Of a stretch of 64,000 nucleotides of DNA, positions 3,214-64,000 are shown in pieces. Every line of letters begins with the position of its first letter. The stretch's first letter is position 1. The stretch is from a virus. The stretch lies in the IMG/VR virus record IMGVR_UViG_3300030118_003002, positions 32,235 to 96,234 of that record. One strand, written 5' to 3'. A program made the position numbers and the translations under genes. Under the pieces are notes generated by a model. It was given only the letters and a program-made list of their open reading frames with translations. It was not told the origin of the DNA and made no database searches.

Positions 3214-3214
3214 A

Positions 3215-11223: not shown

Positions 11224-11227
11224 TTAA

Positions 11228-13297: not shown

Positions 13298-13402
13298 AAT
13301 ATCACCGTTACTATTGTTAAGATGGTTGCTATGTTCACGATATTTACCATCATCAATATCTTATTTGATTTTGCTATCATAGCCAGCAATTCTTCTAATA
13401 AT

Positions 13403-45151: not shown

Positions 45152-45602
45152 ATGATTATGAAATGATGAAGAAAATAATATTCAACTTGGCTGAATACCT
45201 AAATTGTCCTAATGAAGAATTAGAGAAAATGATAGGTGTTAGTTGGATGCGATTTCATAGTTTAGTAGCAAGATTGGAGGGAGAAGAAGAATGAGTTGTT
45301 ATGATTGTGGAAGTAATAAATTAGAGATGGAAGAAAGTTATACAGGCACTTGGTTCATTTGCTGTAAAGAATGTGAATGGGTCGAGATATACGATTTGTA
45401 TAAAGCAGATAATGAACCGGAAAATTATGGAGATGATTAAATGGATAGAATAGAAAAGATGAGAAAAAGAGTTGCTGAAGGTGAAGCATGGTGGGCAGAT
45501 TATGTCGCTAAAATAAATGAGCAGAATGCAGATAAAGTTGCTATTGGTTGTGTTTTGAATCCAGATAAGCCTTTAACATCTGAAAGAAGATATGTTGATT
45601 AA

Positions 45603-47864: not shown

Positions 47865-48218
47865 ATGACATGGAAAAATATACTAAAAGAAGATGAAGAA
47901 GATTACTATGAATCTGATACAAAAGAAGTAATTAAGGATTTTAACATCGCTAAAAATAACATGGAAGAGATGAAAAAGAGATTTGAAGAAATTGAATCTG
48001 TAGTTGAAGAATATGCAGATTTAGTGCTTAAATTTGATGAAGAAGTTATGAAATTGACAACGCTTCATGATAGGTTGGGATATGAAGGCAAATCTGCTAA
48101 TGAGTTCCGTGATAATGTATTTGAAAAATACAGATATGAAGCGTATGATAATTCTAAAAAGATAAATGCGCCTGTGGAAAAGATAGCAGAAAAATTGTTT
48201 AAACATAGAAGATTTTAA
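47865..48218 (+). CDS. W-tag protein (MTWKNILK)
   Basis: Shared N-terminal motif. Confidence 0.75.
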   Translation: MTWKNILKEDEEDYYESDTKEVIKDFNIAKNNMEEMKKRFEEIESVVEEYADLVLKFDEEVMKLTTLHDRLGYEGKSANEFRDNVFEKYRYEAYDNSKKINAPVEKIAEKLFKHRRF

Positions 48219-48230
48219 GGAGAGATTGAC

Positions 48231-48608
48231 ATGACATGGAAAGAAGTATTAAAATTAGACAGGGCTAAATTAAAGCGAAGGCGAGAAGAAGGAATGAAGT
48301 CAATAGAAGAATTAACTCAACTTCCCGAAGAAGATAGAGCATATATGAGAGGGGCTTTAGCGTCAGATATTGCGGCTGAAGAAATGGTTCATGCTGATGC
48401 TAGAAGGGAAAAAAGAAAGAGAACAGGTCTTTCAACAAAATATGACCAACCTTCGGGAACTCCAAGAAAAAATAGGCCACATAGAATGAAAGAAGAAGAT
48501 AAGCCAAAACCAAGAAAAAGGGCAAGCGAAGAAAGGTTGAGAGAACTAATTCGAAGAAATAAGCCACCTAAAATGGGGAGTAAAGGGTCAGGTTTTAGGG
48601 GACATTGA
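48231..48608 (+). CDS. W-tag basic protein (MTWKEVLK)
   Basis: Shared N-terminal motif; GGAG RBS. Confidence 0.75.
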   Translation: MTWKEVLKLDRAKLKRRREEGMKSIEELTQLPEEDRAYMRGALASDIAAEEMVHADARREKRKRTGLSTKYDQPSGTPRKNRPHRMKEEDKPKPRKRASEERLRELIRRNKPPKMGSKGSGFRGH

Positions 48609-48713
48609 TATGACAAGATGCAAACTACTAGATTCATGGTTAGATGCTAAGTCTAAAGAATTAGACAAGGCAGAAAAGAAAGCAGGTAAGGATTTGTTTA
48701 CAGGTGAGAAGAA

Positions 48714-48983
48714 ATGAGTTGGAAAGACGAGATTAAAAAAGATGTGCCTGAATTTGGCTATCCCAATACTAAAGTTATGCACAGTCCAATGGCAAAAGAC
48801 GCTGATAGAGTATCAGATTTGCTTTCTGAAGCATATAATAGATTGTATGATAATAAAGAATTACAAGAAAAATTCTTACTACTTCATAAAAGTGGCTCAG
48901 ATGGTTTAGATAAAGAAGAAGCAAAAAAGGATTTTGATGAAGGATTCAAAGCACTTGGTATATTCTTGAGTAATTTTAGGTGA
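48714..48983 (+). CDS. W-tag protein (MSWKDEIKK)
   Basis: Shared N-terminal motif. Confidence 0.7.
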   Translation: MSWKDEIKKDVPEFGYPNTKVMHSPMAKDADRVSDLLSEAYNRLYDNKELQEKFLLLHKSGSDGLDKEEAKKDFDEGFKALGIFLSNFR

Positions 48984-48989
48984 GAAGAA

Positions 48990-49271
48990 ATGAATTGGGA
49001 AGATATAATAAAAAGAAGAAAGATTTCTGATAATGAAAGAAACATAGACCCTAAATCGTTTAGAGAATATGGCATGAGTCCTTCTTATGAAGAACCAACA
49101 TCAGCAAAGGATGATTATTCCACAAGGTCGCCCGAACTACAAAAAGGGGCGCATACCTATCAACAAGGAATAGAAAAAATAGGCAGGTTGTTTATGAAAG
49201 GTAAAATTGATACCAAAAGATATGAACAATTGCGTGATGAATTAAAAGAAATATTTGGGATGGATGATTGA
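48990..49271 (+). CDS. W-tag protein (MNWEDIIK)
   Basis: Shared N-terminal motif. Confidence 0.7.
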   Translation: MNWEDIIKRRKISDNERNIDPKSFREYGMSPSYEEPTSAKDDYSTRSPELQKGAHTYQQGIEKIGRLFMKGKIDTKRYEQLRDELKEIFGMDD

Positions 49272-49272
49272 T

Positions 49273-49635
49273 ATGTCATGGGAAAATATCATCAAAAAAG
49301 ACAATATGTTGACTAATGTTGCTGATGCAACAGAACTAACCGCTATTTATCTTGGAGATGAACTCAATTATGATTATGATGGTAAATTTGCAGGTATGGG
49401 TTTTAGACGACACGCACTGAATTTAATCGCTGATGCTATGAGAGAAGGTAAATCAGATAAAGAAATTAGAGAAATGTTAAATGATGAAATACCGGATAGA
49501 TTAGAAAGGGATGAAAGATTCACAAAAAGACTTGAATTACATAGATTTAATTTCAAAGATATTAATTTCCCAGAAGCAATCAAAGATGCTTTAGACCCCG
49601 AAATAGAATATTTATCACATTTGAGAGATGATTAA
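49273..49635 (+). CDS. W-tag protein (MSWENIIKK; start reassigned)
   Basis: Internal ATG at 49273 begins the motif. Confidence 0.7.
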   Translation: MSWENIIKKDNMLTNVADATELTAIYLGDELNYDYDGKFAGMGFRRHALNLIADAMREGKSDKEIREMLNDEIPDRLERDERFTKRLELHRFNFKDINFPEAIKDALDPEIEYLSHLRDD

Positions 49636-49636
49636 A

Positions 49637-49954
49637 ATGAGTTGGTTTGATATTGTAAAAAAGGATTATGAATCCATAACAGAAGAAATATTAGAAGCAG
49701 GGGAGCATTTAGAAAAGTTGAGAAATGAAACTGAAAGTATCAGTCTTAAATTAGGTTTGATGACAAGAGGAAGAACTTATAATATGTTATCAGATGAAGA
49801 AAAGAATGAATGGAGTAAGTTAACTGCTAAATTAAAAAACACTTCTAAAGAATTTCAAAAAACTGCTAGGCTTGCTTTAGAGTTAGTCGAAAGAGCGCAA
49901 ATGTTTTCTGGAAACCCTGATGCTAGCGTTAAATTTATTGATGAAAATATTTGA
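49637..49954 (+). CDS. W-tag protein (MSWFDIVKK; start reassigned)
   Basis: ATG at 49637 begins the motif. Confidence 0.7.
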   Translation: MSWFDIVKKDYESITEEILEAGEHLEKLRNETESISLKLGLMTRGRTYNMLSDEEKNEWSKLTAKLKNTSKEFQKTARLALELVERAQMFSGNPDASVKFIDENI

Positions 49955-49963
49955 GGGAAACCT

Positions 49964-50260
49964 ATGACATGGCAAACCATTCTGAAAAAGGAAATTACTA
50001 GTTTTTCAGGAATGGCTAGATTAACAGATGTATTAGAAGACCACGAAGAAATACAGAATTCGCTAAGTCATATCCGTAGGAAATTAACAGGCATATTACA
50101 TTCTATAGATAATATAGCCGGAGATACAGAAATTAATGAAACAATTAATGATTTATTAGGTTCTATAAAAGATTTGAAAACTACTATTCAAATGATGGAT
50201 GATTCATACCAAGAAGAACAGGGAATGGCTTGGGGAATGTTACAGGAGGACAATGAATGA
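49964..50260 (+). CDS. W-tag coiled-coil protein (MTWQTILKK)
   Basis: Shared N-terminal motif. Confidence 0.7.
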   Translation: MTWQTILKKEITSFSGMARLTDVLEDHEEIQNSLSHIRRKLTGILHSIDNIAGDTEINETINDLLGSIKDLKTTIQMMDDSYQEEQGMAWGMLQEDNE

Positions 50261-50628
50261 ATTGGTTTAACATTCTCAAAATGATGACTCCTAGAGAGTT
50301 TCTAGAAGCATTAGGTTTAGAAGGTGACATTAAAGGCGGTGTCGGCAAAGGCGGAACTAATATGTCTTTGCACCATGATACAGGATATGTCAAGGTTCGT
50401 CAGAAAGGCGGAGGTAAATACTTCGTTACTGTTGATGGCAAAAAAACCCTTGAAGCATATAGTCTAGGTGAACTATTACAACAGGTAATGTCAGAAATTA
50501 AAAAGCAAGAATCTTCTTATACCGATGTTCTTCTAAGAGAAGCAGGGGCGGTTAGCACTGCTACACCCAACATAATAAATTTAAGATATTCACACAAAAA
50601 GAAGGAGGAAGATGAAGATGCCGAGTAA
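50257..50628 (+). CDS. W-tag protein (MNWFNILK)
   Basis: Shared N-terminal motif. Confidence 0.7.
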   Translation: MNWFNILKMMTPREFLEALGLEGDIKGGVGKGGTNMSLHHDTGYVKVRQKGGGKYFVTVDGKKTLEAYSLGELLQQVMSEIKKQESSYTDVLLREAGAVSTATPNIINLRYSHKKKEEDEDAE

Positions 50629-51736
50629 GAAGAAAGCACGAACAAGTGATGGTTTCGGTAATACTGTTGATAGTCCTACATTAGATTTTATTGCTGATTA
50701 CATAGCATGGGAAACTAAATGTAAGGGAATTAGCGATAAAGATATACAATCAGAAGGAAGAAAAACAAAACAAGGAAAAAGAGCAGTTCCTAATACTTTA
50801 TTCGGTCAATTAGAACAACATGTTACTTCTGCGTATAGGCGGCCTAATTCTCGTAATAAAGGAGATAAAGGAATATTTGAAGTTTTGAAAGATATTGCTA
50901 AGGCTATTAAAGGAAAGAAGGTTTTAACAAAAGACAATCTTGAAGACTTGGAAAAAATACAAGATAAATTAGCAATCTTTGAACAGGCTGGAAGTAAATT
51001 AAATCCTAGAAATATTCTTTTCCATACTCCTGTTTCTTTTGATGAAGTTAAAAGAGGAGGGAAAAAGGTTGTTATTGCGAGCGATGATGAAGAACCTATT
51101 TACGGACATTATGTTGATAAATACTTTGTTGCTAAATATCCAGAAAAGAACTATGAAGTTAAACCTAATTGGTCTAATAAAGCGAAAAATAAAGCAAATC
51201 CTCCATTAGCACAGGCATTATTTGGTGGTGGAGATTTAGGAATTGAGAAAGGTCTTATTGATATTGTTGATGGTGCTATTGAAGAGTTGAAAAAAGAAGG
51301 TATTGACCTATACACTATTGGAGTTAGAAGGGCTAGTGCATTAGCATTGATGGGAGGAGTTAGAAAATGGGTAACTAATAATATAAAGAACCCTAGATTC
51401 TATCCGGAGAATAGTGGTAAAATAAATCTTGGAGCAATAGCAAATGCACTAAGAGCAGAAACATTCACAGTTGCTAGTGAGAAAGAACAAAAATTACTTA
51501 TCTATGCGGCTACAAATAAAAAGATGGAATTTGCTCAAGATATTAAAGAATATAGAATAGGTCAAATAAGCAATCAAGTTATGGGAACTCTCATTAAAGA
51601 AGTAATCGCAAGAGGTCGCCAAGAAAACATTAAAGTTAGAAATGGTTACTATTTGAGATTGAGGGGATTATCAGACCCTCCTTCTGATACATGGAAAGAT
51701 ATTAAAAAATCATGGCAAGACATTTTGAGGTGGTAA
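50612..51736 (+). CDS. Hypothetical late protein with C-terminal W-tag-like motifs
   Basis: Ends SDTWKDIKKSWQDILRW. Confidence 0.7.
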   Translation: MKMPSKKKARTSDGFGNTVDSPTLDFIADYIAWETKCKGISDKDIQSEGRKTKQGKRAVPNTLFGQLEQHVTSAYRRPNSRNKGDKGIFEVLKDIAKAIKGKKVLTKDNLEDLEKIQDKLAIFEQAGSKLNPRNILFHTPVSFDEVKRGGKKVVIASDDEEPIYGHYVDKYFVAKYPEKNYEVKPNWSNKAKNKANPPLAQALFGGGDLGIEKGLIDIVDGAIEELKKEGIDLYTIGVRRASALALMGGVRKWVTNNIKNPRFYPENSGKINLGAIANALRAETFTVASEKEQKLLIYAATNKKMEFAQDIKEYRIGQISNQVMGTLIKEVIARGRQENIKVRNGYYLRLRGLSDPPSDTWKDIKKSWQDILRW

Positions 51737-51737
51737 A

Positions 51738-52103
51738 ATGAGTTGGGAAGATATAATTAAGATTGGGTATATTCCATCAGATGCAAGAAAAAGAAGCGCA
51801 CCTACTATTAATTGGTTAGATGCTTTTGATAAATTTGGGTTTGATGACGGGGCAGAAAATAAAGGACAAACAGAAGATATTGTTGATTTTTTAGAGGATA
51901 ATAAATATAAATCACATTTAACTTATGCCGGAGGACATAATACTTACATTTCTCGAATAGAAGATTTTGATGGAGAGAAAGTATATCCAATAGAAGGAGA
52001 GAGTTCTCGTTATGGGAAAAGACGATTTTTCCCGCCTAAACTTCTAAAACTGTTAGATGGTAAATATGGTAAATCAACGAAGTCAGAACACATTAAGAGT
52101 TGA
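51738..52103 (+). CDS. W-tag protein (MSWEDIIK)
   Basis: Shared N-terminal motif. Confidence 0.7.
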   Translation: MSWEDIIKIGYIPSDARKRSAPTINWLDAFDKFGFDDGAENKGQTEDIVDFLEDNKYKSHLTYAGGHNTYISRIEDFDGEKVYPIEGESSRYGKRRFFPPKLLKLLDGKYGKSTKSEHIKS

Positions 52104-52765
52104 TTAAAATGATAACCCGTAAACGATGTTCTGTTTGTCAACATGACGATAGAGAAGAAATTGAAGCCGCATTAGAAGGTGGATTTACTTCTTGTGATGA
52201 TATGGATAAAAGATATAATTGGCGAAGCGGTTCATCAGCCCAACACATGAGAAATCATATGGGAGATTATACCAACAGTAGTAATCCAAAATGTAAATTA
52301 TGCACAGACCCAATGAGGAAGCATTACGAACAGGCACTTTCAGAAGGTAATATTACCGTTGAGGGAGTTTCACAGGCTCTTGAAGTTACTAAAGAGCAGG
52401 TGCAAAGGCACATGAAGCACCACTTAGCACCATTGGTTCAGCAATCTGCTGCCACAATGATAGCGAAAAAAGAAGTAAATGAGATTGATTTGCTAAGTGC
52501 TAACATACAAAGATTAGATTCCAAGTTAGACGAGTTGTTCAGAAATACAGAACTAGAACCAAGAGAGATAGATAGTTTGACTAAACTCGCAAAAGAAGTT
52601 AGAGAGTCTTTGAGGTATCTTTTAGAATTTAAAGGCAAACTTGTTCACAAGAGACAAGACACAATTATTGTCGCACAAATGCAGATTGTTCAAGAAGTCT
52701 TAGCACAGAATAATCCTGAGATTTGGCTTGAAATTAAAAAGAAAATGCAGGAGAAATTACAATGA
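52100..52765 (+). CDS. Tandem CxxC...HxxxH zinc/HTH protein, possible terminase small subunit
   Basis: CSVC...HMRNH and CKLC...HMKHH repeats plus C-terminal coiled coil. Confidence 0.5.
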   Translation: MIKMITRKRCSVCQHDDREEIEAALEGGFTSCDDMDKRYNWRSGSSAQHMRNHMGDYTNSSNPKCKLCTDPMRKHYEQALSEGNITVEGVSQALEVTKEQVQRHMKHHLAPLVQQSAATMIAKKEVNEIDLLSANIQRLDSKLDELFRNTELEPREIDSLTKLAKEVRESLRYLLEFKGKLVHKRQDTIIVAQMQIVQEVLAQNNPEIWLEIKKKMQEKLQ

Positions 52766-52989
52766 GTTGGAAAGATATATTAAAAGAAGAAATAAAACAC
52801 TATAACAAATTACCAAACGATATGCCCGAAGCAACGAAGTATGATTTTGCCGTTGATAAAGGAGAAGAGAAAGCAAGATTGGCTTTTGCTAAAGAAATAC
52901 TTGAAGAAGAATTTAGCAGTAAAACCCATAAAATAATAAGTTATAATGACCCTTACGACCAAATGTTTTACAGGATTGTTGAAAGATAA
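52762..52989 (+). CDS. W-tag protein (MSWKDILK)
   Basis: Shared N-terminal motif. Confidence 0.7.
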   Translation: MSWKDILKEEIKHYNKLPNDMPEATKYDFAVDKGEEKARLAFAKEILEEEFSSKTHKIISYNDPYDQMFYRIVER

Positions 52990-53001
52990 GGAGGAATTAC
53001 A

Positions 53002-53427
53002 ATGAGTTGGAAAGAAATAGTAAAAGCACCTACGCCAAACTATCAAAAGAAAAGGTTTATTAGAAGGGGCGAGTCAAAGTATAGTGTAATTGATGGTAGT
53101 TTAATGGCAGAGATAGTTAAAGGATTAGGACTACCCGAAAAAGACGAAGATGGGGATAAGATTCAATATGAAGAAGATTATGATTATTTAGACTTAGATA
53201 TTTCCGCAGATATTGATTCCCCTGACATTACTATCACAGTTAAACCTAAAGGAAAAATTAGTATTTATAAATCCGAAGACACTATCACTCCGGTATATAC
53301 TTTCAAGGAAGATGAAATAATCATGGATGATGCTATTGATATTCCGGTAGGTGAAAAAGTGACTCTAGACTTTGAAATTGTGGATTTTCATAATGGGAAA
53401 TTGTATTTAGAATTGACGGGAAAATAA
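53002..53427 (+). CDS. W-tag acidic protein (MSWKEIVK)
   Basis: Shared N-terminal motif. Confidence 0.7.
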   Translation: MSWKEIVKAPTPNYQKKRFIRRGESKYSVIDGSLMAEIVKGLGLPEKDEDGDKIQYEEDYDYLDLDISADIDSPDITITVKPKGKISIYKSEDTITPVYTFKEDEIIMDDAIDIPVGEKVTLDFEIVDFHNGKLYLELTGK

Positions 53428-53445
53428 TACAGGAGGTGAATTACA

Positions 53446-53637
53446 ATGAAAAAAGACATGAATGTGAACAGATATGAAAAAGAAATTATCGCTACGATTG
53501 ATACTTTGAAAGAATTAGTTAGGTCTAAAAATATGCGTATGATAAACAGGGCTTTGTATAAGACAATAGATGATATTACTGCTTTAATAAAATTATACAA
53601 AGAGGCGATAGAGGATGAATTAACGCCTCCCAAATAA
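53446..53637 (+). CDS. Small helical protein
   Basis: GGAGGTGA RBS. Confidence 0.6.
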   Translation: MKKDMNVNRYEKEIIATIDTLKELVRSKNMRMINRALYKTIDDITALIKLYKEAIEDELTPPK

Positions 53638-53652
53638 GAAGGAGAGATTACA

Positions 53653-54150
53653 ATGAGTTGGGAAGATATATTGAAAAGAAGCATATTAAATAATCAATTC
53701 TATGCTTTCCAAGAATATTTACAATATGATGCCGAGCCTCCGTTTATAGATTATGAAAATATTAAAGCAAAAGAAGGCGATACTTTAGGAAATCGTTTTA
53801 CTATAAAAGTGAGAAAACCATTGACTAAAAAAATTGAAGTTCAAGAAAGAAAACCCTATCAAGAATCAGTTGCGGAGGCTATTGGAAGAAAGGACTATTA
53901 TTATGAAGAAGGAAAATTATATATTAATAATATTGAAATAGCAGATTATTTTATAGAAGGTGGAGATGAGGGAATAAATATGAGTAAAACTTTATCTGAT
54001 AGTGATATACAAAAAGTGTTTGATTATTTTGTAAATAATATTAGTGAATCTGATTTAAAACAATATAAAGAATACTTACCAGAAGCCTTTGAAGAAGCAC
54101 GAAATATGAGTCAATCACAAGATTTTTGGAGTAGGGCATTTAGAAATTAA
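53653..54150 (+). CDS. W-tag protein (MSWEDILK)
   Basis: Shared N-terminal motif. Confidence 0.7.
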   Translation: MSWEDILKRSILNNQFYAFQEYLQYDAEPPFIDYENIKAKEGDTLGNRFTIKVRKPLTKKIEVQERKPYQESVAEAIGRKDYYYEEGKLYINNIEIADYFIEGGDEGINMSKTLSDSDIQKVFDYFVNNISESDLKQYKEYLPEAFEEARNMSQSQDFWSRAFRN

Positions 54151-54162
54151 GGAGAAATTACA

Positions 54163-54369
54163 ATGAGTTGGAAAAGCATTATCAAACAGGATTGGAAAGA
54201 TACGGCAAGGGGCGACCTAGATGCTGATGAATCCTTAATTGCTTTTCAACAATCATTGTTTTACATGGAAAAGGTATTAGAAGAATTGAAAAAACCTAAT
54301 CCTAATATTCCGGAATTGATAGAGTTTATCGAATATAATATTCAAACAATAAAGGAGGAGTTAAAATGA
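54163..54369 (+). CDS. W-tag protein (MSWKSIIK)
   Basis: Shared N-terminal motif. Confidence 0.7.
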   Translation: MSWKSIIKQDWKDTARGDLDADESLIAFQQSLFYMEKVLEELKKPNPNIPELIEFIEYNIQTIKEELK

Positions 54370-54584
54370 GAGAACACCCAAATATTGCTAGAATGAAAAG
54401 AGTTAGAGCGAGAAGAAAACATAAGGAAAATCTTCCTAACCTTATTGAAGAGTATAAAGGACTAATAGAAATGGTAAGGGAAATGAGAAAACAACCCGAA
54501 TACGCTGATAAAAAAGAAAATCTGAATAGAGTCCTAGATACTTTTTCAGAAGGTCTTAAAAAACTAAAAAAGGAATTACAATGA
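54366..54584 (+). CDS. Small helical protein
   Basis: GGAGG RBS, coupled. Confidence 0.55.
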   Translation: MREHPNIARMKRVRARRKHKENLPNLIEEYKGLIEMVREMRKQPEYADKKENLNRVLDTFSEGLKKLKKELQ

Positions 54585-54593
54585 GGTGGTCTA

Positions 54594-56645
54594 ATGAAAG
54601 CCTTCCCTGCTGATTTTCTTACTCTCTTTCAGATGCTTTCAGACGATACAACGGCAGAAATTTTGTTTAATATTAAAAGCACTAATAGAAAAATTACTAA
54701 TCCTAACTTTGATGAAATGGTAAATCATTTCAAAGAACAGGAAATTGATATAAGTTCTGTTTATGAGTTTATGGAAGAAAAGAATCTTATTACTAATCTT
54801 CTTCGTAATAAAACAAAAGCAGAAAAAATAGAAATAAGACAAAATATTGCTAAGAATTTAGAAAAACTTATTGAAGGTTTAGGTCAGAGAAAATCTAGAG
54901 ATAAGACACAAAGACTTCTAAACGGAATTTTAGCAGATGATTCCCAATCTAGGGCTAATATTGTTGCCTTGAATGTTTTTCTAAAGGATTCGACTGATAA
55001 AAAACTTAAACATATAAAAACAAGATACTTAAATCCTGAAAATAGAGCAAAATTAATAGAAGTTATTGAGAAAAAAGAGTCTAAAAAGAGAAATTTTACT
55101 CCAAAAGACTTCTATAATGAGAAATTAATCAATTTAACTAGAGTTTTAGTTGAAATTCGTGCAGTTTCAGGCGAAGTTGATGAAAATTTGTTGGATGATG
55201 AGGCTAAAGAGTCTAATTGGCAGACTGAAATGAGTGGAAATTTAGTAATTTTGAGAAAAATAGTTAAATTTCAACGAAAAATAACACAAGGCGACATTAA
55301 AAAGTTAATTAAAGATGAATTACCATCATTATTCGCTTTAGCATCAACGGAAGATGTTAAAATGCGTAGTATTTCTCCTGATTTAAGAAGATTATTGTAT
55401 GAAACTGACTCATCTTTCGTAAATATAGGCAGTGCTTCAAGAATAAAAGCATTAGCGACTAAATTACTAGAAAGTTTTGGTAATGTTGAAAGAGAAGAAA
55501 TAGAAAATTGGTTCAAATTGGTGATGGAAGGTGCAAAAACCGGAGATTCTAGAGATACTAATTTTATGAAAGAAATTACTAATTTTAAGATTAATGGTAA
55601 GTCTATGTATCAAAGAATTTTAAGTGGAAAAGAGAATTCTAGCAAACATACTCCTTCTTTTTACATTCGCAAACTGTTAGAAACACCTACGGACAGTAAT
55701 TTGTTTGAAAATGTTATGAAAGAAATGGCGGCTGAAACTATCCTTACTAGAAAAGATTGGTTAGCATGGAAGAAACAGTCTGCCAGCACCAAAGAGGAAA
55801 AGGAAAACATTGAGTTAGACTCCAAAAAGGCACTCACTACGGAAGAAAGAAAAGCCTTTGAAAAAGAATATTTTAATGCTACGACCAATACTGTTCCGGC
55901 AATATTTATTGCTTATATGAAAGACGAAGGTGATTTGGAAATAACAGATGAGGACTATACTATTGTAAATCCTACTCAAGCAGAAGAATCCCAAAAGGCT
56001 ATTGTTATGAAAGAGGAAGCCAGCAAGGAGATACAGAAAGAACTCGGACAAGTATTAGAAGAAGAAGCAGCAGTTAGAGACTACAAAGAATGGTTGAAGG
56101 AAAATGGCTATTCCTATGATACGAATTTTTATGCTAAACAAAAACTAACTGCTCAAACTAGTGATGCTGAATTGCAAAATGAATCACAGTTAGTCAAGAC
56201 AATATTTTCTGTAATAAGTTCTCAAACGGAGACAAAAGGAGAAGAGACAGTTATTATAGAAGACCCGCTAAGAAATTTTTTCATAGACAATTCTCTCAAA
56301 GTTGTATTGGATAAAAAATCTAAGAATATCAAAGATGGGTTAGCCGTCTTTTATCACATAAGTAATTCTATGGCGAGTCCGTTAGTTGCCGAAGCGCAAA
56401 AAATAGACAAGGAAGTTAAGAAAGGTTTAACAGTTAAAAACAAAACCTTGCTCCGAGCAGTTAGGGGCTTTGCGGATAAGATTGAAGTAAACCTTAAATT
56501 ATTCAAGAGTAATTTCGAAAAGGCATTAACTGATAGATTACAAGATATTGGAGAAAATCCTATTAATTATCCTACTATTTATGATTCACCTAATTACACT
56601 AATAAATTAGTTAGTTATGCATTAATGAAAAGGCGAGAACTATGA
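54594..56645 (+). CDS. Large K/E-rich helical protein (possible internal virion protein)
   Basis: 683 aa, no recognisable catalytic motif, late region. Confidence 0.6.
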   Translation: MKAFPADFLTLFQMLSDDTTAEILFNIKSTNRKITNPNFDEMVNHFKEQEIDISSVYEFMEEKNLITNLLRNKTKAEKIEIRQNIAKNLEKLIEGLGQRKSRDKTQRLLNGILADDSQSRANIVALNVFLKDSTDKKLKHIKTRYLNPENRAKLIEVIEKKESKKRNFTPKDFYNEKLINLTRVLVEIRAVSGEVDENLLDDEAKESNWQTEMSGNLVILRKIVKFQRKITQGDIKKLIKDELPSLFALASTEDVKMRSISPDLRRLLYETDSSFVNIGSASRIKALATKLLESFGNVEREEIENWFKLVMEGAKTGDSRDTNFMKEITNFKINGKSMYQRILSGKENSSKHTPSFYIRKLLETPTDSNLFENVMKEMAAETILTRKDWLAWKKQSASTKEEKENIELDSKKALTTEERKAFEKEYFNATTNTVPAIFIAYMKDEGDLEITDEDYTIVNPTQAEESQKAIVMKEEASKEIQKELGQVLEEEAAVRDYKEWLKENGYSYDTNFYAKQKLTAQTSDAELQNESQLVKTIFSVISSQTETKGEETVIIEDPLRNFFIDNSLKVVLDKKSKNIKDGLAVFYHISNSMASPLVAEAQKIDKEVKKGLTVKNKTLLRAVRGFADKIEVNLKLFKSNFEKALTDRLQDIGENPINYPTIYDSPNYTNKLVSYALMKRREL

Positions 56646-59293
56646 CAGAAAAAATGAATAAATATTTGAAACCTAAAGTTGTTTCGACTATCCTAAATGC
56701 TTCCGAAAAAGAGTTTAGAAGCGTTGTTCGTGGCGGAGGAAAAACTGCTAAAAAACAGGCGGTTGCTAAAATAGACGATTTCATTAGAGATAAAGTTAGA
56801 GAATACAGAAAGGCTATTAGTTCTGCTTATTTAGAACAAAACAATCAAAAATTATCAATGGGAGAAAGACGAAACCTTCTCTCAGAAATTGGAGAAGAAG
56901 TAAAGGCTCATTTAATGACATTAGAAACAAAAAAGGTTGAAAGAGATGTTACACAAGAAAGCGGTCTTAAAGAACATTTAATGGACAGTATTACTGATGT
57001 TCTGTATGATGTAAAACATATTAGATATGACAATAGGAAATTAAGAACAGAAGATATTTTATCAACTGATTTTTCTTCTGACCTTATTACTTTAACAGAA
57101 GGAAAAAAAGTAAATGCTGATGAAATAGAATCTGAAATCAGATTAAATGTTTTAATTGAGGGTATGCCTGTTCCTAAGAATATTAAAAATAATCTTATGT
57201 CTATGACTGCCAGAATTAAAGAACTATCTAAAAGAACTACTGCTCGTTTCAAAATACACAGACATGAAATTCATCTAAAGAAGATTTTTGGCAGCGATAC
57301 GCAGCGAGCGAGAGATGCTAAACAAAGAAGGGCAACATATCGGTTTTGGAAAGGTGTAGCAAAAGAACAGGATAGCATGATTAAAAATTTAGAAGTGCTG
57401 GTGCAGAAACTAGATAAGGCAAACCCCGATAAAGATAAGGCCGATAAAGATGTAGCAGAATTTATTAGATTTATGAAAGGCGACCCCCAATTAGAATATG
57501 TATTTCCTTTTGAAAGCAAATCTTTAGGGTTTGCTGATTTGAATGCTAGGTCATACAAGTTCCTACTTAAATTTTTGAAGTTGTTCAATTACGATGTTAA
57601 TTTTAGAGGAAAGGGTATTGAACAAGAAGAAGTTGATGAGGAATCACCCGTAAAAGATAGTGTTGACGCTCTTGAAGATGCTTATGCTCAAGCCGTTACA
57701 GGTGAAGAAGAAGAAACTGATGAAGGGACAACAACTGATGCGGCAGTAAGCGAAAGGCAATCACAAGCCTCTCGATTAACAATACAAGACAAAACATTGA
57801 GAGATATTTTTGATGATGCCGATGTTAAGGAACTTATAGAGGATGCAGAAAAGATGGACTACGACCCTCTAGGTATTCTAGTGATTAAAGATGACTTAGA
57901 CGGATTAATGCCTCTATTTGGAGAAATAGAAGAAATTGAGGACTACCTAAAAGAAAAGTTGACCTTCTTAGACATTGATGAGGATGATGAAGAATCGCTT
58001 TTCAAGACATTTATGGAAGATTTAGAAAGAATAGACAGTTTAGCAGACTCTCAGAAAAAATTCCATCTTCCTATTTTTGCCGCAAATAACGCAGCATTAA
58101 GGACAATATATCCAGAATTAAAATCAAAGGCAGGTAAAATGTCAACTGATATTGACAGATTTTTAGAATTATTTGCTAATCTATTGCAGAAAGAAAAGGG
58201 AACTTTACCTGCTACTTTAAGATTAGATATGACAGGTGCGGGAACAGGTGGAGCGCAAAGTTTTATGCAAGGAGATAAAGAAATTGATATGGCTAAAATA
58301 AGATATTTCAAATATGCCACAACAATTCCATCTAGAAGGGGTTCTCCTAGAAAATCTTTCACAGAAGCAAAGAGTAAAAATAGTGCAATAGAAACTCAAA
58401 TTAATAAAGTAGTAAAGGACATGGCGGAGGTTTTTATTGCTCCTCAACAAAGTCACCTAGATGCGGGAATATCGTTACCGTTCAAAAATAATTATGCCAT
58501 GAGATATATTGCAGCAAATAAAAAACTAGATTCTAAGTTTGCCATATATTCTGCTATCAATAAAAAATTCATGGAAACAGGAGAGGCATTTATTGATGAG
58601 GAAGATGTTAGTAGTTTAACAACATTCCCTAGATTGTTAAGGACAGGAGATGCAATAAAGTCTTTTGAAAAGATAAAATCTGCTGGCGTTAAATTTGCTA
58701 GAGCATTATATGATGTTGCCGAGAGTTTAGACCGTAAAGAAAAGACTTTGAATAACAAAATAAAAGAAAGCATACAAAAAGATGTTGCTGCTATATTAGG
58801 TTCTATTCGAAGTATTACAGGAAGAAGAGAAGAATTCTTTATGAATGATGAATGGGGTAATAATATCGGTATTATGGAATCTTACAGAAATTCTAAAAAA
58901 GATAGTTTTGAAGACATTACCGTTCTTAAAACTATTGTTGATTTATTAGAGAGTAAACATGGAGAAACAGCAATTCCTGATGAAAACCAAAGAAAGAAAC
59001 TTTTAGAAAACTTAAAAGAAATTAAGAAGAGTGAAATTCAAAGAAAGATTTTGAGTGTCCATGATGCTATAAGACTAATTAAAAATCAACCTGTATTTTA
59101 TTCTAGAAAAAGAATTGACAATATAGAACATATGGAAGAAATGATTAACAAAATGGAAAGGGAATATCATTTAGATATTAGCGCAAGTGAAATGTCTAGC
59201 ATAGTTAATGATATAGATTCTTTTGACTCAATCAGTAAATCCTATGGAATAAGCACTGAACATATTTATGTCATTAAAGCAAACTTTAGGTGA
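56642..59293 (+). CDS. Large K/E/D-rich helical protein (possible internal virion protein)
   Basis: 883 aa, no recognisable catalytic motif. Confidence 0.6.
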   Translation: MTEKMNKYLKPKVVSTILNASEKEFRSVVRGGGKTAKKQAVAKIDDFIRDKVREYRKAISSAYLEQNNQKLSMGERRNLLSEIGEEVKAHLMTLETKKVERDVTQESGLKEHLMDSITDVLYDVKHIRYDNRKLRTEDILSTDFSSDLITLTEGKKVNADEIESEIRLNVLIEGMPVPKNIKNNLMSMTARIKELSKRTTARFKIHRHEIHLKKIFGSDTQRARDAKQRRATYRFWKGVAKEQDSMIKNLEVLVQKLDKANPDKDKADKDVAEFIRFMKGDPQLEYVFPFESKSLGFADLNARSYKFLLKFLKLFNYDVNFRGKGIEQEEVDEESPVKDSVDALEDAYAQAVTGEEEETDEGTTTDAAVSERQSQASRLTIQDKTLRDIFDDADVKELIEDAEKMDYDPLGILVIKDDLDGLMPLFGEIEEIEDYLKEKLTFLDIDEDDEESLFKTFMEDLERIDSLADSQKKFHLPIFAANNAALRTIYPELKSKAGKMSTDIDRFLELFANLLQKEKGTLPATLRLDMTGAGTGGAQSFMQGDKEIDMAKIRYFKYATTIPSRRGSPRKSFTEAKSKNSAIETQINKVVKDMAEVFIAPQQSHLDAGISLPFKNNYAMRYIAANKKLDSKFAIYSAINKKFMETGEAFIDEEDVSSLTTFPRLLRTGDAIKSFEKIKSAGVKFARALYDVAESLDRKEKTLNNKIKESIQKDVAAILGSIRSITGRREEFFMNDEWGNNIGIMESYRNSKKDSFEDITVLKTIVDLLESKHGETAIPDENQRKKLLENLKEIKKSEIQRKILSVHDAIRLIKNQPVFYSRKRIDNIEHMEEMINKMEREYHLDISASEMSSIVNDIDSFDSISKSYGISTEHIYVIKANFR

Positions 59294-59820
59294 TTTATTT
59301 GACTAAACGCTTTGAATACACTATTAGCGATAGAAGTTTTAGTGAAAGCGAGACAAAGAAAATATTTGCTGATGCTGGAATTGATTGGCCTACAAGAGCA
59401 GAAAGATATGAACAACTAAAAGGAACTATATTTCAAGAAGTGGATGGTGAATGGTGGATTTCATATTTAGATGGAAAACCCGTTGGTTCATATGGAATTG
59501 CTAAGTTTGAAGGAGTTTATTTATCTTTAGGTGCAAGAAGTTATTCTGCTGGTGCAGGTGAATTTGCATCAAGATATGTTGTGAATAAACATGGTGATAA
59601 ACCAATTTTAGCGAATGGTGCAACTCAAGATGGAGTAAAACTATTGAATAAATTAAAATTTAAACCGATAGAAGTGAAGAATGGATTAATTCAAGGTAAT
59701 GAAGATGTGCCAACAGAAGTAAAATCTGCTTTAGAAGCCGCTAAAGATAGAGGCGGAACAATAGTCAGAAAAATATATTTGAAAAATTCAGACACATGGT
59801 TTGTTTTATTGAGGAATTAA
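59290..59820 (+). CDS. Possible GNAT-fold protein
   Basis: WWISYLDGKPVG, AGAG, GVKLLNKLKFK pattern. Confidence 0.35.
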   Translation: MIYLTKRFEYTISDRSFSESETKKIFADAGIDWPTRAERYEQLKGTIFQEVDGEWWISYLDGKPVGSYGIAKFEGVYLSLGARSYSAGAGEFASRYVVNKHGDKPILANGATQDGVKLLNKLKFKPIEVKNGLIQGNEDVPTEVKSALEAAKDRGGTIVRKIYLKNSDTWFVLLRN

Positions 59821-59821
59821 T

Positions 59822-61252
59822 ATGGAAGTTGAACCGTTTAATTTTGAACATCAGATGGATATGGAGTTATCCAAAAACTCTTTTCCATACTTCTTTCAGA
59901 ATGTATTAGGTTTTGACTTTCCTTCTTATATCAGTGAATGGCATGACCTAATGAATGAAACTCAAAGAACAGTTATTATTTGTAGTCGTGACCACGGAAA
60001 ATCTGTATTTATGCACAGTTGGGTTGTTTGGAAATTAATTTTCGAAGAGCCACCATATCAAATGCTTTACATTTCATCTAACCAAAAACAGACATTGGTT
60101 CACATGAGAGATATTGACAAGATGTTTAACCATCCCATGTTAAAGAAATACAAACCTGCTAGGGGATGGGCTATTGGAAACATTACACTAACTAATGGTA
60201 ATCAAATCTTAGAGCGTTCAGTAGGTTCACAGATTCGTGGATTGCACCCTCAAGAAATAGTAATTGACGACCCTTTGAAAGAGTTTAGTATGACAGGTAT
60301 TCAGAAGGTTACAGATTGGTTTTATGGTGATATGATTCCGACACTTCACCACACCGCTTCTCTAAGAGTAATTGGAACTCCATTTAGTTATACAGATATT
60401 TACCAACAGTTATCAGAAAACGATGCTTATACTGTTAGAACATACCCATGTCTTAATTCTTTGAATGAACCGTTATGGCCGGAGAGATGGAATTATGATG
60501 CACTAATGGCGAGAAAGGCGGAAGTAGGTTCGCTTATGTTCACAAGAGAATATATGTGTGTGCCTATTTCAACAGGAACTTCTCTATTCAATCCGGATTA
60601 TTTAGAGAAAGCCAAGAACAAAGATTATGTTTTGAAGCCTCAAAGACGAGAGGGATTCAAGTATTATGTTGGAGTTGACCCTGCTATTTCAACAGATGGC
60701 GACTACAATGTAATTACTGTATTAGAAGTTGATGAACATGACAATAAGACAATAGTATTTGTTGACCGTTCAAAGAATGTTGAGTTTAGAGAGAACATAG
60801 AAAAGGTTCGTCTAATAGGAAAAATGTTCCATCCCGAAGTAGTCCTTTTTGAAACAAACACCTTTGCTAAATCATTTACACAGGAGTTAAGGAATGTGTC
60901 TGATTTGAATGTGCATGATTTCAATACCACTAGAAAACGAAAGGAGGAAATTATTCTTAGCCTTCAAATGAATTTTGAAAATGAGAAGATTAGACTACCT
61001 TATGGTAATGAAGAAAGTCGGAGAGTTACTATGACACTGATAGAAGAATTGTCAATGTTTGCTATTACTGATAAAGGAAAGTTTGAGGGTATTGGAGCGC
61101 ATGACGATATGGTGATGAGCCTAGCATTAGCAAATGCCGCAACACATACTATGAGTGAAACATTCATACTATTGGATGACTTGGGCTTATTTGAGCCGGT
61201 TAAAACTAACAAGTATGCGAAGACTAACGGCTTTTTGGGAATGAACTTTTGA
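59822..61252 (+). CDS. terL: Terminase large subunit
   Basis: SRDHGKS Walker A, IVIDDP Walker B, VIGTP, VGVDPA and HDDMVMSLALA nuclease motifs. Confidence 0.93.
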   Translation: MEVEPFNFEHQMDMELSKNSFPYFFQNVLGFDFPSYISEWHDLMNETQRTVIICSRDHGKSVFMHSWVVWKLIFEEPPYQMLYISSNQKQTLVHMRDIDKMFNHPMLKKYKPARGWAIGNITLTNGNQILERSVGSQIRGLHPQEIVIDDPLKEFSMTGIQKVTDWFYGDMIPTLHHTASLRVIGTPFSYTDIYQQLSENDAYTVRTYPCLNSLNEPLWPERWNYDALMARKAEVGSLMFTREYMCVPISTGTSLFNPDYLEKAKNKDYVLKPQRREGFKYYVGVDPAISTDGDYNVITVLEVDEHDNKTIVFVDRSKNVEFRENIEKVRLIGKMFHPEVVLFETNTFAKSFTQELRNVSDLNVHDFNTTRKRKEEIILSLQMNFENEKIRLPYGNEESRRVTMTLIEELSMFAITDKGKFEGIGAHDDMVMSLALANAATHTMSETFILLDDLGLFEPVKTNKYAKTNGFLGMNF

Positions 61253-61261
61253 GGTGGTTAT

Positions 61262-62911
61262 ATGACTGAACCAGAACAAAAAGAAGAAGCGGCAGAGGAA
61301 CTTAAAGAATCTGCTAAACTCCAAAGAGAATCTAAGAAAAAATTAGAACAAGTTCAAGCCGATTTAGGAACTAAATTAGCAGGTGTTTCTGATTATGTCA
61401 TGTCAGATTATGAAGCGGTGACTACTCTTTCAAAGAATCTGAATATAAACGCCACTGATGCTAGAAAAAGGTTATCCACCTTCCCGTCTGAATATGTTGT
61501 TGATGGACAAAACATTCCAGATTTAGTTAGAAAGATGCGTAAAGCAAGAAGGAAATTAAAAGGTGATTCTAGAATTAGAATGTCTGAAGCGATTGATACC
61601 GTTATTGATGGTTATGCAGACCACATCAATAAATGCATTGATTCTATTTATTGGATTAAACCTTACAAAGTTCCGCTATTAAAGATGAGATTCAACGAAA
61701 AAGATTTATCTAAATTAAATAAAATTTCAGAAGTTAAAGAGAGAAGAGTTGTTGTTGACTCTCTTTGTAAATTATGGGAAATTGATTTGAAAAAGGAAGG
61801 AATGGCTTTTAGTTCTGAATACGCTAAATTAGAGAAAGAATCTAGATTAGCAAAGAAACAGTTTAGAGAAGAATTAAAAAAGGTTAGTGACCAATCTTTA
61901 GTTAAATCAAAGAAAGAAAGAACATTAGACTTTATTATGAAAGCAATATGTGAAAATCCGGGAATTGGTCTATTAAGCATACATGATAAAATGCCAAATC
62001 AATTACACAAAATGAATTCATCAAACACTATTTCTAAGATGATTAAAAAATTAGAAGTGGGTCATTATGATGGGTCATATTACAAATTACCTAATGAATT
62101 AAAGAAAAATGTATGGGCTTATACTGCCGCATTTATTGATTCAGACGGCTACATTACTATGGATAGAAACCATAATCCAAGAGTAGGTTTAGTGGCAACA
62201 GGAGAAAGAGGTAAAGTGTTTATGAATGAAATGCACAAGTCTATTGGTTTTGGTAAGTTACACTTAGACCAAAAATCCCCACAAGATACAAGACCTGTAA
62301 ATCGCCTTAACTTTTATTCGCAAGATGATGTGTATAATCTATTGACAAAGTGCTTGCCACACTTTAGAATGAAGAAGGGTAATGCTGAATTGTTGCTAGA
62401 ATTAATACGCATGAAGAAGTCATACAAGAAGGCTGATTGGTATAAGGGCAGGTGTGAAGAAATATTCAAACTGATGAAGTGGGAGAACCACAAAGACCAT
62501 GTTGGGTTTGACTTTTCCAAAGAGGGAATATATGTTGATGATATTTCTAAATTACAAGGCAATTGTAAAATGAGCCTTATGGATGAGTTAGAAGGCATCG
62601 GAGGAATTATTGCTAAACAACAAGTAAAGACATTTGTAATTACAGAAGTTGATTGGGATGATGCAGAATATATCGAAGGTGAATCTGTTAGATTAGATGA
62701 AAGCGATTTACCAACATACATGGCCGTTCCTATTGCTGATTTGGGCTTTCCCGATGATTGGGCTATGACACAAGAATACATAGATGATGCAATAAATAAC
62801 TTTTTAGAAGATGAAACAGGCTACACTGCTAAAGGATTTATGTGGCACTATGTTGATGAGAATGGTAAAGTAATGCAACCGGAAGATTTTCCGGAATATG
62901 AGGAGGAATAA
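61262..62911 (+). CDS. Multidomain protein with LAGLIDADG domain
   Basis: AYTAAFIDSDGYI motif preceded by helical and wHTH-like regions; acidic C-terminus. Confidence 0.65.
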   Translation: MTEPEQKEEAAEELKESAKLQRESKKKLEQVQADLGTKLAGVSDYVMSDYEAVTTLSKNLNINATDARKRLSTFPSEYVVDGQNIPDLVRKMRKARRKLKGDSRIRMSEAIDTVIDGYADHINKCIDSIYWIKPYKVPLLKMRFNEKDLSKLNKISEVKERRVVVDSLCKLWEIDLKKEGMAFSSEYAKLEKESRLAKKQFREELKKVSDQSLVKSKKERTLDFIMKAICENPGIGLLSIHDKMPNQLHKMNSSNTISKMIKKLEVGHYDGSYYKLPNELKKNVWAYTAAFIDSDGYITMDRNHNPRVGLVATGERGKVFMNEMHKSIGFGKLHLDQKSPQDTRPVNRLNFYSQDDVYNLLTKCLPHFRMKKGNAELLLELIRMKKSYKKADWYKGRCEEIFKLMKWENHKDHVGFDFSKEGIYVDDISKLQGNCKMSLMDELEGIGGIIAKQQVKTFVITEVDWDDAEYIEGESVRLDESDLPTYMAVPIADLGFPDDWAMTQEYIDDAINNFLEDETGYTAKGFMWHYVDENGKVMQPEDFPEYEEE

Positions 62912-62913
62912 TT

Positions 62914-63120
62914 ATGACATGGGAAGAAGTATTGAAAAAGAAAAAGAAAAAATCAACTGTTAATCAAGCAGGTAATTATACTAAACCTAAAATGAGAAAG
63001 AGAATATTCAACAGAATTAAAGCGGGAACAAAAGGCGGTGCTGCGGGTCAATGGTCTGCAAGAAAAGCACAAATGTTGGCTCAAGCATACAAAAAGGCTG
63101 GTGGTGGCTATCGGGATTAA
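62914..63120 (+). CDS. W-tag plus DUF5872-like N-terminal half
   Basis: MTWEEVLK; YTKP..R......IKAG.KGG..GQWSARKAQ.LA..YK..GGGY. Confidence 0.75.
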   Translation: MTWEEVLKKKKKKSTVNQAGNYTKPKMRKRIFNRIKAGTKGGAAGQWSARKAQMLAQAYKKAGGGYRD

Positions 63121-63385
63121 TTGGCGTGATGTTCTCAAAGCCAAATCAAAAAGGCAACAGGACTTAACCACTTGGACTCAAGAAGAATGGGGAAGTCAAG
63201 AACAACACCGAGCGAAAGCAAAAGGGAAAAAAGCACCATCTAAAACTAAAGGTAGGTATATGCCGAAAGCAACTTATCAAAGAACAGATAAAAAGACATT
63301 AGATTATCAAGATTCCAAGAAAAGAAAGGGGCGAAAAAAGGGTAGGCAACACATACCAACAGGAAAGAAGTTTAGTCAGAAGTGA
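63101..63385 (+). CDS. W-tag plus DUF5872-like second half (start uncertain: GTG 63101/63104 or ATT 63116)
   Basis: INWRDVLK then QQDLTTWTQEEWG...GRYMPKA. Confidence 0.65.
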   Translation: MVAIGINWRDVLKAKSKRQQDLTTWTQEEWGSQEQHRAKAKGKKAPSKTKGRYMPKATYQRTDKKTLDYQDSKKRKGRKKGRQHIPTGKKFSQK

Positions 63386-63389
63386 TAAT

Positions 63390-63731
63390 ATGAAATGGCA
63401 AACTCTTCTAAAAAAAGACCCCAAGAAAGGAACGGGTAAAAAACCAAAAGGTTCTGATAGAAGATTATACACTGACGAAAACCCAAAAGACACTGTTCCC
63501 GTTAAGTTTAAGACCGCAGATGATGTGAAAGAAACATTCAGTAGTTCGGCATTCAAGAACAGGTCACATAAAAGACAGTCACAAATAATTAATTTAGTTG
63601 AACAAAGAGCAAGAGTAGCGGCTAAAAGAGCAAAAAATCCAGAAACAAAAAAGAGATTAAATGCTGCACACAAAGTCGCTTTAGCAAGAAAAGAATCTAG
63701 TAAAGAAAAAACAAAGAGGATGAGAGAATGA
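63390..63731 (+). CDS. W-tag basic protein (MKWQTLLKK)
   Basis: DPKKGTGKKPKGSDRRLYTDENP motif of phage-type basic proteins. Confidence 0.7.
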   Translation: MKWQTLLKKDPKKGTGKKPKGSDRRLYTDENPKDTVPVKFKTADDVKETFSSSAFKNRSHKRQSQIINLVEQRARVAAKRAKNPETKKRLNAAHKVALARKESSKEKTKRMRE

Positions 63732-64000
63732 GTTGGAAAGATATATTAAAAACAGAAAAAGCACACTGCGGTTCAGAAAAATTAGATGATGAAGAAGAAC
63801 CTTTTGAAAAATTAACAGGAAACCAAGATAGAATTGATGCTAATAAAGATGGTAAAATTAGCGGAGAGGATTTCAAATTACTTAGGGATAAAAAGGTCGC
63901 TAAGAAAATGAAATCTGATTCTCAAATAGAAAAGGAGATACTTGCAGAAATTAAAAAAGAAGGTGGGGCATTAGGAATGAAAAACCTAAAAGCAATTGCA
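63728..64000 (+). CDS. W-tag protein with EF-hand-like loop (3'-truncated; not in ORF track)
   Basis: Read manually: MSWKDILK...IDANKDGKISGEDFKLL. Confidence 0.7.
   Translation, partial: MSWKDILKTEKAHCGSEKLDDEEEPFEKLTGNQDRIDANKDGKISGEDFKLLRDKKVAKKMKSDSQIEKEILAEIKKEGGALGMKNLKAIA

Follow-up and report, generated by a model that had tools for sequence, protein, structure and literature searches.

The window, a stretch of 64,000 nucleotides of virus DNA (bases 32235-96234 of the 96,234-bp contig IMGVR_UViG_3300030118_003002), encodes a series of small proteins that begin with one and the same short peptide of the consensus M-[STN]-W-x-[DEN]-I-L-K, hereafter the tag, followed by sequences unrelated to one another. 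It is practically certain that the tag is a modular, terminal element selected at the protein level. The core of the tag also ends the prohead protease of the same virus and a small protein of its head module, and the reading we favour, at about an even chance, is that the tag is a capsid-loading label mimicking a scaffold tail.

The window was searched for the DNA pattern ATGNNNTGGNNNNNNNTNNTNAAR (IUPAC code), corresponding to M-x-W-x-x-Φ-Φ-K, where Φ is a hydrophobic residue. A total of 15 matches were detected, against a mean of 0.18 and a maximum of 2 in 100 dinucleotide-preserving shuffles. All 15 matches are located on the plus strand at the starts of open reading frames (ORFs), spanning positions 47865-63751. 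Two variant starts raise the number of N-terminal tags in the window to 17. The variant at 48714 carries Glu in the first hydrophobic position, and that at 63116 is without ATG, the likely start being GTG at 63101 or 63104, which puts four to five residues before the tag as in the orthologues. About 17 proteins with a common N-terminal tag had been listed in the preliminary description of this DNA, and all 17 starts were recovered where it had placed them. The motif was also detected at the C-terminus, one residue before the stop codon, of two window proteins (ORFs 50612-51736 and 59290-59820). The tagged ORFs and the two proteins with the C-terminal motif are as follows (lengths in amino acids, aa).

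47865-48218, plus strand: acidic tagged ORF of 117 aa; codons 1-8 encode the tag; DNA pattern
48231-48608, plus strand: tagged ORF, 125 aa, basic; DNA pattern
48714-48983, plus strand: tagged ORF, 89 aa; variant tag, the first hydrophobic position being taken by Glu
48990-49271, plus strand: tagged ORF, 93 aa; DNA pattern
49273-49635, plus strand: tagged ORF, 120 aa; alternative start at the upstream TTG at 49255; DNA pattern
49637-49954, plus strand: tagged ORF, 105 aa; DNA pattern
49964-50260, plus strand: tagged ORF, 98 aa; DNA pattern
50257-50628, plus strand: tagged ORF, 123 aa; DNA pattern
50612-51736, plus strand: 374-aa protein with the C-terminal motif in two tandem W-x-x-I copies, the last from 51707
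51738-52103, plus strand: tagged ORF, 121 aa; DNA pattern
52762-52989, plus strand: tagged ORF, 75 aa; DNA pattern
53002-53427, plus strand: tagged ORF, 141 aa; DNA pattern
53653-54150, plus strand: tagged ORF, 165 aa; DNA pattern
54163-54369, plus strand: tagged ORF, 68 aa; DNA pattern
59290-59820, plus strand: 176-aa protein with the C-terminal motif from 59791; directly upstream of the large terminase subunit gene
62914-63120, plus strand: tagged ORF, 68 aa, basic, phrog_17747
63101-63385, plus strand: tagged basic ORF, phrog_14910; tag at 63116-63139 without ATG, probable GTG start at 63101 or 63104
63390-63731, plus strand: tagged ORF, 113 aa, basic; DNA pattern
63728-64000, plus strand: tagged ORF, 130 aa in total, crossing the contig junction; weak EF-hand-like stretch

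The ends of the contig overlap by 99 bp, and the genome is thus circular or terminally redundant, about 96.1 kb in length. Its size, its guanine-plus-cytosine content (about 34% in the virus DNA), its gene content and its two opposed gene blocks fit what has been published on magroviruses, which infect Poseidoniales archaea (PMC5434244, PMC10768690), and the virus therefore matches a magrovirus of marine archaea. One protein 77% identical to its protease is labelled Euryarchaeota, and the cultured relatives closest to the protease are haloarchaeal tailed viruses. No mention of the N-terminal motif was found in the magrovirus literature searched. The minus-strand block encodes a split family-B DNA polymerase, an ATP-dependent ligase, a Cpn60/TCP-1 chaperonin, an SF1 helicase and ribonucleotide reductase, and the plus-strand block extends from window position 47503 across the contig junction to about genome position 38000. 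The landmarks referred to below are as follows.

Window 59822-61252, plus strand: large terminase subunit (TerL), untagged regional landmark
Genome 1759-3408, plus-strand block: portal
Genome 11097-12344, plus-strand block: S78 prohead protease with a long C-terminal extension, 415 aa
Genome 12346-13689, plus-strand block: major capsid protein
Window 22438-23967: standard ATP-dependent ligase

Tagged genes continue beyond the end of the window, at genome positions 248, 1134, 3410, 3981 (a 1022-aa protein with a looser match) and 16357, and the N-terminal carriers number about 22 among the approximately 140 genes of the genome. The tagged genes flank those for terminase and portal. Among the ORF starts of the window and of the rest of the genome, no N-terminal tag was detected on the replication (early) strand; the tagged genes are called late here solely because of their co-orientation with the head genes. 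The series is not confined to 47865-64000, the tagged genes running on past the contig junction.

For a comparison among relatives, a related terminase was found to be encoded in at least 197 IMG/VR stretches, from which the best 80 (at least 80% identical) were kept, the longest contigs among them being 90-97 kb. From these 80 loci, 509 distinct tags were gathered. Trp is invariant, Lys is replaced by Arg in only 7 tags (502 versus 7), and Ile and Leu occupy their respective positions in 77% and 75%, while the information content falls to background two residues past Lys. The codons for these residues vary freely, including AGT and TCA/TCT for Ser, ATT/ATA/ATC for Ile, both codons for Lys and all six for Leu. 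After removal of the first 10 residues, no pair of the tagged proteins gave a BLASTP match better than E = 0.3. Both the protein-level selection implied by codon usage and the unrelatedness of the bodies, as first described, were thus borne out. The tag includes three hydrophobic residues followed by charged and polar sequence, and does not have the features of a Sec or Tat signal peptide, in which a charged N-region precedes a hydrophobic core of about 10 residues or more. Four adjacent genes, at 52762, 53002, 53653 and 54163, have in common the sequence AGGAG-N2-ATTACA-ATGAGTTGG upstream of and into the start. As both the spacer after the ribosome-binding site and the first nine bases are shared, local copying of the 5' ends is likely, but this does not account for the whole tagged set. 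A conserved 121-aa family (genome 7046-7411) starts with M-T-W-D-[YF]-Y and carries F-I-L-K about nine residues further on; this could be the tag in a split or looped form.

The position of the motif is interchangeable. In the family of ORF 59290-59820, the motif is C-terminal in many members and N-terminal instead in others, and the family of the 374-aa protein (ORF 50612-51736) keeps a C-terminal W-x-x-Φ-L motif. In most relatives the DUF6321 protein is about 95 aa long and begins with the tag; here, a stretch of 65 residues has been fused in front of it, and its tag has become internal. For ORF 63728, 39 distinct tagged orthologues were found (23 aligned), all with an invariant tag, and the insertions and deletions among them set in directly behind the Lys. 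Three small basic proteins near TerL (the DUF6321 protein and those of ORFs 62914 and 63101/63116) have homologues adjoining the terminase in marine bacteriophages. The bacteriophage homologues inspected are untagged, namely gp50, gp49 and gp48 of the Methylophilales phage MEP402 (all three proteins) and two proteins of HTVC104P. The protein of ORF 62914 is 79% identical to MEP402 gp49 from residue 11, three residues past the tag Lys, and the alignment of the ORF 63101/63116 protein with MEP402 gp48 starts from the residue after the tag Lys, at residue 2 of gp48. The proteins of the phrog_17747, phrog_14910 and DUF6321 families (window 62914-63385 and genome 649-1134) are up to 80% identical to terminase-side proteins of Pelagibacter, Roseobacter, Methylophilales and Puniceispirillum phages, an unusually high conservation between an archaeal virus and bacterial viruses.

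The tag pattern was also scanned across related genomes, as had been suggested at the outset, in a strict form that allows only Leu codons (plus TTY, for Phe) at the second hydrophobic position. A total of 28 genomes gave 2-15 matches each (4-15 in records at least 73% complete), always on one strand, against a single match of the reversed control pattern in all 28 genomes together. These genomes span several clades with differing protease tails. No strict match was detected in five genomes of a sister clade, in which the tails are of the M-S-W-D-E-V-H type. Since this clade has the tails and is without the tags, the tags are an innovation within part of the order, superimposed on an older two-protein tail system.

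The two proteins of the tail system are the protease and a small protein of the head module. The 415-aa protease combines the S78 domain (residues about 20-200) with an extension that is acidic and resembles a coiled coil, an arrangement known from fusions of protease and scaffold. The capsid protein is without an N-terminal delta domain, its N-terminus being conserved from residue 1 even in a clade 40% identical, and the protease extension is therefore the likely scaffold. The protease ends with M-[DE]-W-S-D-I-H-K-M-V plus three residues in 74 of 76 relatives, the remaining two differing at a single position. The other protein (genome 7395-7643), of 82 aa, is composed of an N-terminal helix, a Ser/Thr/Pro-rich linker and a protease-type tail, with which its 63-member family always ends; it may be a true or auxiliary scaffolding protein. 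In layout, this protein resembles SaPI1 CpmB. Its counterpart in the sister clade of magroviruses, of 105-115 aa, has a co-varying tail, the ending M-[ST]-W-x-[DE]-[IV]-H-x-[ML]-A being common there to the small protein and the protease. The concerted change of the two tails suggests that they have one shared receptor. In a search of 1.8 billion representative proteins, protease/scaffold fusions 35-56% identical were found very often to end with [ML]-[SD]-W-x-[DE]-[IVL]-[HNE]-x-[LAM], 8-17 residues before the stop. The tails of the HK97 gp4 and halovirus HVTV-1 proteases showed no resemblance to the magrovirus tail.

The tag and both tails share the core M-x-W-x-[DE]-I, in which the start codon supplies the Met at the N-terminus, and it is this core that ends both the protease/scaffold and the 82-aa protein. 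The two following residues differ, being Leu-Lys in the tag and His or Asn followed by a variable residue in the tails; Lys follows the His or Asn only in the virus's own clade and its nearest relatives. A fold of the capsid protein was predicted from a 40-row alignment, with a mean predicted local distance difference test score of 43.8, too poor for use. A prediction of the complex between the capsid protein and the first 45 residues of the ORF 63728 protein gave no answer (score 0.00), and was used neither for nor against the model.

The carriers themselves are diverse and change rapidly. In the 80 terminase-centred loci, 532 ORFs of at least 60 aa begin with the tag (median length 118 aa), forming about 187 families, of which 178 are mostly tagged. 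A tagged family is present in a median of 6 loci, versus 50 for untagged ORFs. For the window genes at 50257-54369, orthologues were detected in 0-4 of the 80 relatives, and tagged genes are present at this place in every relative; the tagged genes that follow the terminase are kept in 27-55 loci. The carriers are either acidic (isoelectric point 4.5-6) or very basic (9-11). Among 100 representatives of the tagged families, 98 gave no Pfam match at E ≤ 1e-4, the two matches being a pentapeptide-repeat protein (E 8e-11) and a DUF6943 protein; the Pfam and PHROGs scans of these representatives list one regulator-like match. For the tagged proteins of the window and the genome, only DUF6943, DUF6321, phrog_17747, phrog_14910 and a weak phrog_7404 were matched. 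The body reported earlier as an EF-hand does contain an EF-hand-like stretch, but its Pfam matches fall below the gathering score. Taken together, the carriers would behave like accessory cargo. Some members of the pentapeptide-repeat fold are DNA mimics, and the single tagged protein of this type would fit an injected anti-defence role, though it is one case only; an anti-defence role of the cargo is a guess.

Based on these observations, the following model can be proposed for capsid loading. In related systems, a tail of this kind keeps the scaffold or protease attached to the inner face of the HK97-fold capsid shell. In the protease/scaffold and in the 82-aa protein, the tail would likewise serve to bind the shell, and the tag would be a derived copy of the tail core by which, as the head assembles, a carrier is placed in the scaffold core or against the inner shell. 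Labelled in this way at one free end, in most cases the N-terminus, the carrier would be co-assembled into the procapsid, in which the S78 protease could then free the cargo, possibly by a cut after the invariant Lys. Such a cut is plausible because the S78 enzyme of HK97 cuts the HK97 capsid protein after Lys103. The cargo would be a large and fast-turning set of small acidic or basic proteins, presumably delivered together with the DNA to the next host cell. The preliminary description had proposed an address label on variable head cargo. The match to the tail core, the modularity, the addition of the tag to proteins that are untagged in bacteriophages and the turnover of the carriers all point in this direction; the other elements of the model, capsid-protein binding, packaging and ejection as well as the cut after Lys, are inferred.

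Several observations weigh against this model. The tag and the tail diverge past the core, and the tags keep Lys in clades whose tails are without it; given these different residues, one pocket need not accommodate both. A search for covariation of tag with tail from clade to clade found none, the tags keeping I-L-K while the tails vary. The sister clade with tails is without tags, and hence the tails alone do not entail a tag system. Genes for a ubiquitin-like protein (Ubl) and its activating enzyme E1 co-occur with the tags, an association not expected from capsid loading alone. A set of about 22 different cargo proteins is large for a capsid of about 96 kb. Finally, the presence of tagged proteins in the virion, their binding and their cleavage are predictions of the model.

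The co-occurrence with Ubl and E1 raises the alternative that the tag is part of a viral ubiquitin-like system, with its Lys as the Ubl acceptor or with W-x-x-I docking Ubl or E1 in the manner of an Atg8-interacting motif (AIM), also known as the LC3-interacting region (LIR); we consider this improbable. In the acceptor version, the 66-aa viral Ubl would be activated by the ThiF-type E1 and removed by a JAB peptidase. Of the 25 tagged genomes searched, which include all tagged clades examined, 23 gave a match for E1, the other two being incomplete records; Ubl was detected in the one tagged genome tested, and neither was found in four untagged genomes of the sister clade. This co-occurrence, however, reflects one phylogenetic split rather than independent events, and is for that reason weak evidence. 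E1-like gene matches with in-frame TGA (one, one and three stops) were noted in the relatives G006, G022 and G027, and could be due to sequencing errors, pseudogenes or recoding. The rarity of Arg in place of Lys is as expected of a conjugation site. The core of the LIR/AIM motif is W-x-x-[ILV]; the more general form [WFY]-x-x-[LIV] is present throughout the tags, as W-x-x-I, but such a core is short and common, and an acidic residue two positions past the Lys is found in only about one-third of the tags. The 66-aa Ubl seems, moreover, too short for the N-terminal helices that form the LIR pockets of Atg8. The tags are carried only by morphogenesis-strand genes near terminase and portal, whereas Ubl, E1 and JAB are encoded in the replication block on the opposite strand, and the clade without E1 and Ubl has this core motif at the ends of both its protease/scaffold and its small scaffold-like protein. 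That the tag is the substrate mark of a viral Ubl pathway on about 20 virion-module proteins, by which Ubl would be tied to the loading of the capsid or to a timed cargo release, is quite improbable. A link of the tag to the viral chaperonin was ruled out, the chaperonin being present in tagged and untagged clades alike.

The other explanations concern either the partner of the tag or its nature. The tag may dock an assembly or packaging hub other than the capsid shell, such as the portal, the terminase, the 1022-aa head-module protein or the packaged DNA, or else a host factor, and so bring accessory proteins together away from the shell. Such docking, though unlikely, is in agreement with the position of the tagged genes on both sides of terminase and portal, with the very basic, DNA-binding-like character of several carriers whose bacteriophage homologues also adjoin TerL, and with the difference between tag and tail at two positions; it leaves unexplained why the core matches the tail of the scaffold/protease in particular. 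A short terminal motif with an invariant Lys could also be a signal for processing or turnover without packaging, either an N-terminal propeptide or a degron for a viral or host protease, and cleavage after Lys is the activity of the HK97 S78 enzyme. Mimicry of a host substrate is one example, the capsid and scaffold proteins of 80alpha being cut by Prp, the L27 protease. This we regard as very unlikely: a degron is not expected on the scaffold/protease tail or at both N- and C-termini, and cutting by the viral enzyme would itself imply packaging, since prohead proteases act inside the prohead. A feature of the nucleic acid (a translation-initiation enhancer or the boundary of a recombination cassette), or else the residue of one diverged paralogue family, is hardly conceivable and has been largely refuted. 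The upstream and start sequence shared by the genes from 52762 to 54163 makes a recent 5' duplication or recombination plausible there, but the residues are fixed while the synonymous codons vary, and the motif also occurs at the C-terminus and, after fusion, internally, by which a translation- or RNA-level signal was ruled out. A single paralogue family was ruled out by the dissimilar bodies (best E = 0.3), and three carriers have untagged bacteriophage homologues.

Magroviruses are among the most abundant archaeal viruses of the surface ocean, and the roles of most of their genes are open. About one-sixth of the genes of the present genome are tagged, and if the tag is a capsid-loading label, all of these would gain a place in the life cycle at once. 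Archaeal tailed viruses would then deliver a large and rapidly changing protein payload, as do T4, P1 and giant phages. The label is short, with three or four defining residues, and would allow metagenomes to be screened by a simple sequence criterion for candidate injected effectors, of which the 80 loci yield about 187 families. If the tag works, it could also be used to bring foreign proteins into a shell of the HK97 fold.

Some other features of the genome were noted. A 979-aa protein with an ATP-dependent DNA ligase domain (genome 8120-11059) is encoded within the head module, its gene immediately preceding that of the protease; the standard ligase is a separate gene at window 22438-23967. 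Directly after the terminase, a 549-aa protein (window 61262-62911) contains a weak homing-endonuclease-like stretch, with a match to the PHROG 'HNH endonuclease' (E 2e-5) and LAGLIDADG-like sequence by eye; its family is kept in all 80 relatives and tagged in none. The sequence E-E-stop ends 18 of 143 called genes, located on the minus strand at window 24084-47185, on the plus strand at 44876-45294 and 61262-62911, and elsewhere in the genome, the DNA at these ends being typically GAAGAAGAATGA or GAGGAGGAATAA. The last codons of these genes also hold a purine-rich ribosome-binding site and the overlapping ATGA with which the following gene starts, and the acidic C-termini are therefore a by-product of translational coupling.

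Loading of unrelated proteins into a head by a short terminal peptide is known in several systems. In PMC7411985 and PMC9958956, the capsid-targeting sequence (CTS) of phage T4 (Mullaney and Black 1996) is described as a short N-terminal peptide on the internal proteins IPI-III and Alt that loads these unrelated proteins into the prohead. As in the magrovirus, a peptide of about 10 residues is common to otherwise unrelated proteins, and the T4 peptide sends them to the prohead and can carry foreign proteins; the T4 cargo is non-essential and is injected with the DNA. The hydrophobic pattern of the CTS is aromatic-x-x-Φ-Φ, as in the magrovirus tag. In contrast, there is no sequence similarity between the two, and no homology to the T4 CTS or to the gp21 protease was found, the magrovirus protease being of the Peptidase_S78 (HK97) type and the consensus different. 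The T4 CTS binds the scaffolding core, whereas the magrovirus tag resembles the scaffold/protease tail, occurs also at the C-terminus and is found on about 22 carriers, as against four to five, in an archaeal virus, where packaging and cleavage are as yet predicted. Phage P1 packages its Dar anti-restriction proteins in the head (PMC12810830). This is likewise an accessory set loaded during head morphogenesis and ejected to protect the DNA, but loading is hierarchical through DarA and Hdf, not by one common short tag.

For the encapsulins, short C- or N-terminal cargo-loading peptides attach cargo of various kinds to the inside of a shell with the HK97 fold. Use of a terminal peptide at either end is also observed within one magrovirus ortholog family. 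The encapsulin, however, is a cellular compartment without portal, protease or DNA, with a Gly/Ser-rich consensus and typically one to few types of cargo, whereas the magrovirus encodes TerL, portal, protease, capsid protein and tail genes. Duda, Oh and Hendrix are said to have described, in 2013, the C-terminal targeting tail of HK97 gp4, and this tail alone can carry a passenger protein. The gp4 prohead protease is brought in by its tail, as cited in PMC7411985, in which a similar targeting role is proposed for the propeptide of SPN3US gp245. In HK97 as in the magrovirus, the protease is of the S78 type with a C-terminal tail that brings it, or would bring it, into the prohead, but the HK97 tail is dissimilar in sequence and is not known to serve a family of natural passengers.

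A parallel to the use of one tail by several proteins is 80alpha, in which the scaffolding protein and SaPI1 CpmB share a C-terminal 'helix-and-hook' (RIIK) that binds the capsid protein (PMC5644958). Both cryo-electron microscopy and genetics showed that the last 16-21 residues of the scaffold bind the HK97-fold capsid protein, at the N-arm and the A/P cleft (PMC5644958). This tail is only C-terminal and serves the control of capsid size by a satellite, not cargo, and binding was seen there, while here it is predicted from genes. In both systems, however, otherwise unrelated proteins carry one short tail, CpmB (72 aa) borrowing that of the scaffold much as the 82-aa magrovirus protein carries that of the protease, and the Φ-Φ-K of the hook resembles the I-L-K of the tag.

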